DNA from: a virus
Lineage: Duplodnaviria; Caudoviricetes
Reading direction: 5' to 3' (one strand)
Length of the DNA stretch: 28,165 nt
IMG/VR virus record: IMGVR_UViG_3300020045_003845
Location: 1 to 28,165 of that record
The notes below the pieces were generated by a model. The model searched no databases. It saw only the letters and a list, made by a program, of their open reading frames with translations, and was not told where the DNA came from. How positions within the stretch are numbered: the stretch's first letter is position 1; every line of letters begins with the position of its first letter. Of this stretch, positions 558 through 12,416 are shown piece after piece. A program made the translations under genes and the position numbers.

Positions 558-617
558 AAGTGAGTAGCTAATAGCTTTGTTTTCAAAGTGGGCGGTGGTT
601 CTAGCCCGCCCACACAT
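558..617 (+). ncRNA. Degenerate tRNA-like element or GC-rich hairpin directly upstream of the tRNA
   Basis: TAGCT D-arm start and T-arm-like GGTGG-TTCTAGC-CCGCC; acceptor pairs only 5/7; competing 8-bp hairpin GTGGGCGG/CCGCCCAC. Confidence 0.3.
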
Positions 618-691
618 GGGGAGGTAGCTCAGCGGCTAGAGCGGTTGCCTTTTAAACCAACAGGACGGTGGTTCGAGTCCATCCCTCCCCA
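618..691 (+). tRNA. tRNA with aberrant enlarged anticodon loop, most likely derived from tRNA-Lys(UUU)
   Basis: Acceptor GGGGAGG/CCTCCCC; D arm GCTC-AGCGGCTA-GAGC; anticodon stem GTTG/CAAC closing CCTTTTAAAC; T arm GGTGG-TTCGAGT-CCATC; discriminator A; no encoded CCA. Confidence 0.8.
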
Positions 692-695
692 CACA

Positions 696-10726: not shown

Positions 10727-10903
10727 ATGAAAAAGCTATTAATTGTACTATCGGCAATAATTTTGCTGTATTTATGTGGGGCTTTTATAACCCTTTTACC
10801 TAATCCTTTAGAGTGGAGCAGTGATGCGCGAATAGTTTTTACTATATTTTGCGTAGTGGTATCTGTTTTTTTAGCCTCCGCTCCGAAAGGAATGTATGAT
10901 TAA
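10727..10903 (+). CDS. Small two-TM membrane protein (58 aa), not in the ORF track; last gene of the + arm
   Basis: MKKLLIVLSAIILLYLCGAFITLLPNPLEWSSDARIVFTIFCVVVSVFL...; shares TTAA with the convergent gene's stop. Confidence 0.7.
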   Translation: MKKLLIVLSAIILLYLCGAFITLLPNPLEWSSDARIVFTIFCVVVSVFLASAPKGMYD

Positions 10904-11472
10904 GGAATCAACAACCCAAAAATAAAGCCAATAACACCGCCTTCAACACGACCTTTATTGCGAGCCTTTCGAATATCTTTTTTAGCCTGTTTTACGGTAT
11001 TAAAAAGGATTAAACTATCGTTGCGGTGTATTGTGTCATTAATTTGAATTACGTTCTTTAAATCGAAGATATTTGAGTCTTTAAATTTAATAATGTTGCT
11101 GTCAAGTTTTAGTTGAATTTTAGCATCATTGTATCGGTAATAAGTTCTATTAGCACTATCCTTTGAAGGGTATAAGGTATTAAATAAACTGTCATGCTGT
11201 GAACTATCGAGAGTGTTTAAATAAACAATACTATCTTCGTATATGCGTTTAATTTTTAGCTTTTCGGTGTAAACGGTGTCAACCCTTTTTTCATTTGACT
11301 CAACTTCGGAAATTAGGTTTAAAGCCTTTATTTGCAAGGTTTCGTTATCTGACTGTAATTTTAAATTGTCGTTCTCTTTTTGCCCATCACGCCAACCCAG
11401 CAAAAGAATTATTAGCAGCAAAATTGCAATGATGCAGCATAGTTGTATTTTTGTTTTTTCGCTTTCGTTCAT
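10900..11472 (-). CDS. Putative spanin-like (Rz-like) membrane coiled-coil protein
   Basis: N-terminal TM helix, long coiled coil and hydrophobic C-terminus; downstream of the endolysin on the same strand. Confidence 0.5.
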   Translation of the reverse strand: MNESEKTKIQLCCIIAILLLIILLLGWRDGQKENDNLKLQSDNETLQIKALNLISEVESNEKRVDTVYTEKLKIKRIYEDSIVYLNTLDSSQHDSLFNTLYPSKDSANRTYYRYNDAKIQLKLDSNIIKFKDSNIFDLKNVIQINDTIHRNDSLILFNTVKQAKKDIRKARNKGRVEGGVIGFIFGLLIP

Positions 11473-11474
11473 GC

Positions 11475-11504
11475 TTGCAAATTACAAATTAAATATTACA
11501 TTTG
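11475..11504 (+). promoter_or_regulatory. Bacteroidota primary-sigma promoter driving the ncRNA unit
   Basis: TTG-N19-TACATTTG, same CTTGCA...TACATTTGT layout as at 5846-5877. Confidence 0.7.
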
Positions 11505-11538
11505 TTTTCAGTAATTTGTTTTCAGTAATTTGTTTTCA
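11500..11538. repeat. Tandem repeat ATTTGTTTTCAGTA, about 2.8 copies
   Basis: Units at 11500-11513 and 11514-11527, partial unit at 11528-11538. Confidence 0.85.
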
Positions 11539-11554
11539 TAGGTGAATTATGGCT

Positions 11555-11613
11555 TTGCGTGTAGCTCAGCTGGTTAGAGCCTTGTGTCGGTGGTTCGAGT
11601 CCATCCACGTAAA
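11555..11613 (+). ncRNA. tRNA-like RNA lacking the anticodon arm
   Basis: Acceptor TTGCGTG/CACGTAA; D arm GCTC-AGCTGGTTA-GAGC; only 8 nt (CTTGTGTC) before the T arm GGTGG-TTCGAGT-CCATC. Confidence 0.75.
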
Positions 11614-11671
11614 CAAGCACCAAAAGCCTTTGCGGCAAAGTACGCAACTTATAAGGAAGTGCCTTATGCAA

Positions 11672-11708
11672 TAGTGCAAGTAGCGGTGAAATGCTTTGAT
11701 GTGCATTA
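11672..11708 (+). ncRNA. 16S rRNA helix-23 (690 loop / Kt-23)-like hairpin
   Basis: GTAGCGGTGAAATGCTTTGAT (11680-11700) enclosed by the TAGTGCA/TGCATTA stem; 16S comparison is from memory. Confidence 0.5.
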
Positions 11709-11715
11709 GCTTAAC

Positions 11716-11749
11716 GGCCTCACTTTAATCGGTGGGGTCTTTTTGTTTT
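11716..11749 (+). terminator. Intrinsic terminator of the ncRNA unit
   Basis: GGCCTCACT/GGTGGGGTC stem with G-U pairs, followed by TTTTTGTTTT. Confidence 0.75.
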
Positions 11750-11801: not shown

Positions 11802-12416
11802 ATGATAACAGAAAACATATCAGGGCGCACCTTCGGAAGATATACGGCCATTAGCTATTTCGGTAGAGATAAACATAAAAAGCCGCTATGGAATTGCGTA
11901 TGTAAATGTGGCGAAAACAGGGTTGTTGGGCTACATTCTTTAAAAAGCGGAAACTCTAAAAGTTGTGGGTGCTATGCTGGTGAGCAAAGGGTCAAGTCAA
12001 AAACAACACATGGCAAAACAAACACTGACATATGGAACATATGGAGAGCCATTAAACAACGAACGACAAATAGAAACACCAGGTCTTTTTCAAGATATGG
12101 AGAAAGGGGTATACTAATGTGTTCAGAATGGTTGTTATCTGTTGATGCATTCCATAAAGATATGGGTGATAGGCCTTCTAAATCACATTCAATAGAAAGA
12201 ATAGATAATGACAAGGGTTATTATAAAGAAAATTGTCGATGGGCGACAAGACTTGAACAGGCAAGAAATCAGACAAATAACGTTGGTGTTTTAAACGTAG
12301 AAAACGGGGTGTTTTATAACACTATCTCAGAAGCCGCATATTGTGATGGAAAATTTCCTCATCAGCTAGCGCATTTACTAAGAAGGGGAACTACGACAAG
12401 ATTCTCATATATATAG
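11802..12416 (+). CDS. HNH-type homing endonuclease-like protein
   Basis: GRTFGRY...WNCVCKCG...SKSCGC; YGERGI; SIERIDNDKGYYKENCRWATRLEQARN; C-terminal YNTISEAA (NUMOD-like). Confidence 0.8.
   Translation: MITENISGRTFGRYTAISYFGRDKHKKPLWNCVCKCGENRVVGLHSLKSGNSKSCGCYAGEQRVKSKTTHGKTNTDIWNIWRAIKQRTTNRNTRSFSRYGERGILMCSEWLLSVDAFHKDMGDRPSKSHSIERIDNDKGYYKENCRWATRLEQARNQTNNVGVLNVENGVFYNTISEAAYCDGKFPHQLAHLLRRGTTTRFSYI

Follow-up and report, generated by a model that had tools for sequence, protein, structure and literature searches.

It has long been asked why phages carry tRNA genes, a problem lately linked to tRNA-cutting immunity, and the tested anti-defence phage tRNAs described so far act, in the passages that report them, by decoding. 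The tRNA-shaped RNA considered here, 59 bases long and encoded at 11555..11613 (+) of a phage genome, has a two-base turn in place of the decoding arm, and this raises the question of whether such a gene is a decaying tRNA or a tRNA body with a role of its own. The window analysed is the entire linear record of this virus (G000), which comprises 28,165 bases and has a completeness of about 42%.

The armless tRNA core and its locus

The original prediction placed a tRNA shape without anticodon arm at this site, and in a base-by-base reading every feature it named was present on the + strand. The element consists of a 7-bp acceptor stem with one G3:U70 pair (11555-11561 / 11606-11612), U8-A9 (11562-63), a D stem whose loop contains GG (11564-67 / 11577-80), an 8-nt linker between the D and T arms (11581-11588), a 5-bp T stem enclosing TTCGAGT (11589-93 / 11601-05) and the discriminator A73 (11613). 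According to the covariation within the family described below, the first four bases of the linker (11581..11584) form a C26-G44 pair closing a 2-nt loop (C26-UU-G44), which replaces the anticodon arm and is followed by a 4-nt connector ending in C48. The spacing between the D and T arms is thus 8 nt, compared to 23 nt in 141 of 144 normal copies, and the anticodon stem-loop is absent. The discriminator is followed by C-A-A, with C74 at 11614, and CCA is therefore not encoded in this copy.

The element scored 39.7 bits with the Rfam tRNA model (RF00005; gathering score 29, E 3e-5), and tRNA was the sole listed match at the element in the Rfam scan of the window. It keeps the 7-bp acceptor, the D and T arms and the core pairs of a canonical tRNA and differs from it by the missing anticodon arm. 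ARAGORN, run on the window, did not call the element as a tRNA and found no tmRNA. The D-to-T pattern has a single match in the window, and none of 100 shuffles produced it. The minimum free energy fold is the proposed three-arm structure, yet its stability equals that of shuffled sequences (z -0.41). The elbow, which had been predicted to be intact, is indeed kept, but this description was too narrow, since the whole tRNA core is kept (8-14, 15-48, 26-44, the D and T loops and the 7+5 bp helix).

Another tRNA-shaped gene, whose anticodon arm is irregular, was found at 618..692 (+) using ARAGORN, Rfam, folding and the family model, and both stretches that the element had been said to share with it were found in the sequence. 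The identity of the T arms is no proof of duplication within the genome, because the same 17-nt T arm occurs in three short-linker copies from other genomes (and in 0/144 normal-length tRNAs). The gene at 618 has a 24-nt linker with a 4-bp stem, a 10-nt Lys(UUU)-like loop containing an extra base, and a C-C mismatch, and could be nuclease-resistant, frameshifting or non-decoding. Just 5' of it, at 588-613 (+), lies a very stable hairpin (z -4.1) with a T-arm-like loop, which ends in the same ACACAT as the tRNA at 618, is matched weakly by the family model (E 0.24) and has a TAnnTTTG box upstream at 572. A gene-free, GC-richer stretch follows the tRNA (693-830; z 0.25 versus shuffles, no Rfam match).

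The phage is tailed, with early genes on the + strand and head, tail and lysis genes on the - strand, and the element is inserted antisense within this late region. It is flanked upstream by a membrane-anchored protein gene without family matches (10900-11472, -). A predicted host-type promoter, TTG-N19-TAnnTTTG, lies at 11475..11504 (+), and a second match starts at 11424; such a match arises in 118 of 20,000 shuffles of 11401-11554. We take this motif to be the Bacteroidota housekeeping promoter consensus, and infer a Bacteroidota host solely from these promoter-like motifs. The leader contains 2.7 tandem copies of a 14-nt unit (11501..11538, +), which overlap the predicted promoter box and start site and could be an operator. 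Downstream of the core, a trailer with three predicted hairpins closed by a short stem (11618..11715, +; fold not above shuffles, z -0.03) precedes an intrinsic terminator-like hairpin with a T tract (11716..11749, +). The element is thus predicted to be transcribed as its own 240-nt unit, composed of promoter-like motif, leader, core, 100-nt trailer and terminator. This unit is antisense to the lysis genes, and no mRNA requiring processing lies ahead of the terminator. Beyond the terminator come an HNH endonuclease gene (11802..12416, +; phrog_374, E 7.7e-59) and then the endolysin gene (-). HNH genes are absent from the recurring neighbours of family copies, so that this gene is a neighbour and not a conserved partner, and an HNH-linked element was rejected.

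Among 20 candidates retrieved with the membrane protein (10900-11472), none was a close relative of the phage; a capsid search yielded 11 distant loci (27-46% identity), none holding a convincing family member, and HNH relatives reached 50% at most. Metagenome scans for this copy and for the trailer were empty, and BLAST of the trailer against 50,697 phage records gave no match.

Within the trailer, a hairpin at 11673..11707 (+) resembles the apical part of 16S rRNA helix 23, as judged by comparison with 16S sequences and by a model. The 16S segment concerned is presumably helix 23, with the 690 loop near the ribosomal E site. Positions 11680-11696 match 16S rRNA exactly over 17 nt in loci of three of the five genomes examined, and over 15 nt in all five. 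One compared locus, L605, was confirmed as 16S, and the sole 17-mer match of the window to L605 lies in this hairpin, whose basal stem is altered on both sides with the register unchanged. A model built from 10 16S segments matched in the window with E 0.0046, over the apical 20 nt only. The hairpin was not found beside other family members, with none in loci L001-L100, and of five matches elsewhere in viruses three were seemingly coding, one was unrelated and one was a real 16S gene. As one of the coding matches agrees with 16S over about 22 nt, such matches occur by chance in a large collection. The resemblance of the trailer to helix 23 is suggestive and an unreplicated singleton.

Recurrence in phages and prophages

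Further tRNA cores lacking the anticodon arm were found in number by pattern scans that covered parts of IMG/VR and of GTDB. The first pattern fixed the D stem and the T loop and allowed only linkers too short for an anticodon arm. Across 29 of 64 parts it retrieved 119 viral stretches, which extrapolates to about 270 overall; 98 of 120 viral matches had at least 6/7 acceptor and at least 4/5 T-stem pairs, 77 of them being perfect, and the other 22 were removed before counting. The 88 GTDB stretches comprised 14 with assembly gaps, which were removed, and 74 that could be parsed, from which 28 were removed to leave 46 well paired. A second pattern with another D arm (A15) retrieved 120 stretches (about 290 estimated), 69 of them unique, and 56 well paired remained after removal of 13. 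Together, the scanned parts of IMG/VR and GTDB yielded 122 distinct well-paired copies of the first type and 56 more of the second, counts that overstate the number of independent events because of kinship among copies. The 14 gapped stretches are ordinary tRNA genes of metagenome-assembled genomes in which NN gaps interrupt the anticodon arm, an assembly artefact that mimics armless tRNAs (L245, L254, L265, L267, L268, L276-278, L285, L300, L310, L317, L324, L329). Unlike these, the copy of this phage has a linker of the form typical of the family.

The linker length peaks at 8 nt (41/120), followed by 9 nt (22/120). Scaled to the whole collection, roughly 90 viral stretches would have a linker of 8 nt, about 15-20 each linkers of 13-15 nt, about 300 each linkers of 19-21 nt, and about 31,000 a linker of normal length. 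Viral stretches of the first D-arm class with short or mid-length linkers number about 1,400 by estimate, and the mid-length ones may include decoders.

The titles of the GTDB records name Actinomycetota, Bacillota, Bacteroidota, Pseudomonadota, Cyanobacteria, Planctomycetota and one Methanocorpusculum bin. A PHROG match (E <= 1e-12, up to two long ORFs tested per locus) was obtained at 30 of 38 GTDB loci tested, which indicates that the GTDB copies lie mostly in prophages. The same armless design, with its stems paired, recurs across many bacterial groups in phages and prophages that are unrelated to one another. Two copies, L308 and L309, are located between primase and terminase genes on two provirus-like contigs of the Methanocorpusculum bin and may belong to archaeal proviruses, provided that this bin is clean.

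The phage of a cultured phage-host pair also carries the element: the Polaribacter phage Danklef_1 has a member at MT732458 43546-43603, annotated as 'tRNA-OTHER, Undet (NNN)'. The tRNA passages of the Danklef paper are silent on this gene (PMC8776804), and a large tRNA survey is described in its text as discarding 'undet' genes before analysis (PMC13092985). Annotation tools thus overlook armless genes or label them as undetermined. When two other members were compared with cultured phages by BLAST, the best 25 matches of each were ordinary tRNAs only. A search of open-access papers and bioRxiv showed no description of the family, only other tRNA mimics and the 'anticodon-less' damage products of Schlafen; the family is apparently uncatalogued, although the supplementary lists of phage ncRNA motif surveys may include it.

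At 95 loci, no protein family recurred beside unrelated copies, except for terminase, ParB-like and lineage-specific genes. ARAGORN called tRNA genes within 1.5-3 kb at 30 of 98 loci. A terminase gene lies at most 3 kb downstream at 11 of the 38 GTDB loci and upstream at one, a bias with p of about 0.001 against a rough 10% expectation that is not calibrated on normal phage tRNAs. The nearest genes with a PHROG match are co-oriented with the element in 15/15 cases upstream and 16/19 downstream. Terminator-like hairpins lie within 50 nt upstream of 9 of the 122 copies (0.7 in shuffles), as compared to 7 of 135 normal phage tRNAs. An attP or att remnant was rejected as an explanation, as both halves are present and mutually paired and no integrase recurs as neighbour.

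Pairing, origin and persistence of the core

The D stem and the T loop were set by the search patterns and hence carry no weight as evidence of conservation. In the acceptor and T stems of the 54 copies with 8-nt linkers, 97.9% of 918 cells were paired, with 257 two-sided changes, a level reached by none of 500 shuffles and compared to 34-49% in slid controls. Two-sided changes were seen at all seven acceptor pairs and at three T-stem pairs. Position 48, which lies outside both search patterns, covaries with position 15: C48 is found in 120 of 122 copies with G15, and U48 in 52 of 56 with A15. The 26:44 combinations in the 54 copies were CG (39), UA (7), AU (2), GC (1), GU (1) and other (4). 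In the set of 49 8-nt-linker copies they were C-G (35), U-A (6), A-U (2) and G-C (1), that is 44/49 Watson-Crick pairs, as against 17/138 Watson-Crick and 1/138 C-G in normal tRNAs. As the first and fourth bases of the linker pair, a 2-nt turn closed by a rebuilt 26:44 pair takes the place of the anticodon arm, and this natural C-NN-G turn defines a minimal tRNA scaffold. Selection rather than decay had been proposed on the basis of the likeness to the tRNA at 618. This likeness is not the proof, but the covariation across the family strongly supports selection for the whole tRNA core.

The 3' side of the core shows a further tRNA-like trait. CCA is encoded in 19 of 122 copies, compared to 62 of 137 normal tRNAs, and the discriminator is followed by C (C74) in 75 of 122 copies, against a background of 0.22; this excess points to a tRNA-like free 3' end.

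An origin is suggested by 201 genomes of Acinetobacter (the genus around G001), scanned with a pattern that put no constraint on the linker. They contained armless forms, whose linkers measure 8, 9, 11 and 14 nt, as well as full tRNA-Arg(UCU) genes with an acceptor identical to that of the armless forms. The full tRNA at L597 and the armless forms at L072/L600 are 87% identical over 367 nt including the upstream region, which indicates that they occupy the same prophage slot. All three share a conserved upstream stretch of ~300 nt that ends in a terminator-like hairpin and is followed by either tRNA-Arg(UCU) or the armless form. A20, the main determinant of arginine charging according to passages of PMC9976931, is lost in the armless forms. 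We infer that these descend from a tRNA-Arg(UCU)-type gene.

Persistence is seen in seven Microbacterium-type prophages, all with the element at a single site of the head operon, where about 50 nt separate it from the preceding gene and about 20 nt from the following one; among 301 Microbacterium genomes scanned with the strict pattern, only the centre genome matched. The element is 91% identical on average, compared to 85% and 76% for the flanking coding DNA. These copies show a compensatory 1:72 swap, and the base facing U70 at position 3 is either A or G. Both the persistence and the swap argue against a recent accident.

Possible functions

As the tRNA body is kept under selection while decoding is discarded, the body would have a function of its own. 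The conserved features are those read by RNase P, RNase Z and the CCA enzyme, and conservation alone therefore cannot separate a decoy from a processing tag. Excision of a stable core by the tRNA-maturing enzymes is likely, and is the safest conclusion in either case.

We tentatively favour the view that a family copy is a host-matured, non-decoding tRNA core, which would act in trans as a decoy for host proteins binding the tRNA body or its acceptor end. The core keeps the D arm, the 7+5 bp acceptor-T helix, the loops of the elbow and the core pairs, and its arm is reduced to a turn on the 26:44 pair. It would be transcribed in this phage as the predicted own-promoter unit of 240 nt, and in other phages from late operons, in which it occupies tRNA-type slots; in one lineage a single prophage slot is filled either by a normal tRNA-Arg(UCU) or by an armless form without A20. 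After cleavage of the 5' end by RNase P, trimming of the 3' end and completion of the CCA would yield a stable RNA of about 62 nt, probably uncharged in most members. Such a core could neither decode nor be cut at an anticodon, and might thus be produced in excess without disturbing translation. In the last and weakest step, it would titrate tRNA-targeting defence effectors or sensors that contact the D arm, the elbow or the 3' end. The decoy is favoured because the core is fuller than a cut site needs, the 3' flank is tRNA-like, the slots are those of tRNAs and the unit stands alone in this phage. In addition, with terminase downstream at 11 of 38 loci, expression would coincide with that of late phage proteins, which, in passages of a review, trigger tRNA-attacking systems such as HepS and Schlafen (PMC13434031).

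The nature of the target can be narrowed by analogy. AriB is described as touching the tRNA body at the D loop and at further sites, and the authors of that work consider that viral tRNAs might inhibit it competitively (PMC12409363). The specificity of OLD is described as residing in the anticodon arm, swaps of the acceptor or T arm having little effect (PMC12445682). A strict anticodon-nuclease decoy is weakened by this, since an armless RNA may not bind, and the target would more likely be a body- or acceptor-binding protein. Also against the decoy speak the small number of copies encoding CCA and the head-operon position in the Microbacterium-type prophages, which fits a cis processing signal at least equally well. 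It is conceivable, if on the whole doubtful, that phages of many prokaryotic phyla carry an unrecognised class of anti-defence RNA, made of minimal cores that titrate tRNA-sensing or tRNA-attacking immune proteins.

Nuclease-resistant phage tRNAs reportedly counter PARIS, OLD or retron effectors, and occupy the same kinds of slots as the family, one lineage of which shares its slot with tRNA-Arg(UCU). As far as the published passages go, these tRNAs rescue translation by decoding, the cut tRNA being replaced by a working one (PMC12409363, PMC12445682). A family RNA without anticodon cannot do so, and resembles the damage product of OLD or Schlafen, not their substrate.

Alternatively, and possibly though with some doubt, the element may be a processing tag acting in cis, at which RNase P and a 3' nuclease would split or stabilise the flanking transcript and leave the core as a by-product. 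The RNA so processed would be late mRNA in many phages and the 100-nt trailer RNA, a structured 3' flank, in this one. Every conserved feature being a maturation determinant is in line with such a tag, as are the fixed head-operon site in seven prophages, where the element is better conserved than the flanking genes, and the co-orientation of the nearest genes. Bacterial RNase P accepts far simpler hairpins, however, and the kept 15:48 and 26:44 pairs exceed what a tag needs; moreover, the contexts vary widely and include tRNA clusters, in which normal tRNAs supply the cut sites, and no homologue of the trailer was found. Decoy and tag may both hold, in different phages.

Known tRNA mimics provide precedents, and the family would work most like a t-element or YrlA. 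Plant mitochondrial t-elements, such as that of Arabidopsis nad6, are described in passages of PMC1920247 and PMC5499578 as tRNA-derived mimics of the acceptor and T arm, likewise without anticodon arm, that are proposed as RNase P/Z signals. They are presented there as degenerate and tied to organellar mRNA ends, whereas in the phage family the D arm is complete, the core pairs covary and the 26:44 turn is stereotyped; the family extends over viruses of many prokaryotic phyla and is sometimes free-standing. YrlA and other bacterial Y RNAs, as portrayed in passages of PMC4201824, are also non-coding mimics of D arm, T arm and acceptor that occur in phages, and one YrlA-type Y RNA is cut by RNase P and given CCA. 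YrlA is permuted, with an acceptor-like stem-loop between T and D arms, carries the Rsr-binding motif GNCGAAN0-1G and has a Ro60 gene within 4 kb (PMC4201824), whereas the phage element has the order acceptor-D-T-acceptor with open ends. No Ro60/TROVE gene was matched in G000, in which about 42% of the genome and all neighbours within 4 kb are covered. Identity with YrlA was rejected on both grounds, arm order and lack of a TROVE gene.

The tRNA-like domain of tmRNA has an acceptor and T arm without decoding arm, no D stem, and a long mRNA-like domain between its halves. The copy of this phage has G3:U70, the alanine identity pair, and A73, with G3:U70 present in just 11 of the 122 family copies; tmRNA was rejected, as the 8-nt linker contains no mRNA-like domain and ARAGORN and Rfam find no tmRNA.

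The same bases bring up charging. It is unlikely that the core is an aminoacylated carrier or a sponge for EF-Tu or a synthetase. In this reading alanine would be the most plausible amino acid, as AlaRS does not read the anticodon, and the charged core would tie up EF-Tu or serve as a non-ribosomal donor of the amino acid. The alanine identity set is defined in the relevant passages of PMC9976931. Nine of the 11 copies with G3:U70 also have A73, and the Danklef copy has G1:C72, G2:C71, G3:U70 and A73. The present copy has U2:A71 instead of G2:C71, G3:U70 is absent from 111/122 copies, and position 3 switches between A and G within the Microbacterium lineage. Acceptor pairs 1-6 and the discriminator vary without a common acceptor identity, and because of this variation an amino-acid carrier cannot be the role of the family as a whole.

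Other roles, improbable when taken together, would be a sink for enzymes of the RelA type or for tRNA-modifying ones, an RNA for antitermination or packaging at the start of the late operon, or a composite mimic of the E site formed with the trailer. The bias towards the slot before terminase and the upstream terminator-like hairpins speak for this group of roles, but these hairpins are as frequent upstream of normal phage tRNAs. To our knowledge archaea have no RelA, and the two Methanocorpusculum copies, if the binning is right, speak against a RelA-type sink. The E-site mimic draws on the helix-23 match within this transcript, and that match is a singleton; a two-part decoy of the translation apparatus, combining the tRNA core with a mimic of 16S helix 23, seems quite unlikely.

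A functionless pseudogene resulting from a recent deletion (for which escape from a homing endonuclease or an anticodon-targeting nuclease might be the driving force), or an assembly artefact, is very unlikely and already largely refuted for the family: damaged anticodon arms do form a continuum in phage tRNA-shaped genes, assembly gaps made up 14/88 GTDB matches, and this copy is known from one assembled contig without close relatives found, but a plain deletion would have left the purine 26 of normal tRNAs in place of C26:G44, linker lengths have a trough at 13-15 nt beside their peak at 8, stems remain paired across unrelated sequences, a cultured phage carries a copy, and prophages retain the element even where the identity of its neighbouring proteins has fallen to 44%.

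Three further groups of tRNA-shaped sequences were encountered during the scans. Phage genes with shortened anticodon arms (L120-L241), with linkers of 15-21 nt and an estimated number of about 1,100 stretches, have intact acceptor and T stems in 91 of 103 unique sequences, and possibly share the function of the family or are odd decoders. A separate family has a D arm, a 10-nt linker and a T arm, then a short hairpin instead of a paired acceptor (L001, L003, L038, L053, L060, L077, L098, L106, L107, L113). Finally, records mostly labelled as Bacteroidota contain a D-/T-arm motif with A-rich linkers of 9-10 nt and without a 7-bp acceptor, usually located after a pyrimidine-rich tract (L257, L275, L284, L288, L297, L302, L305, L306, L312, L316, L321). 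Judged by its sequence, this motif looks like another uncatalogued tRNA-like RNA, apparently of chromosomal location.
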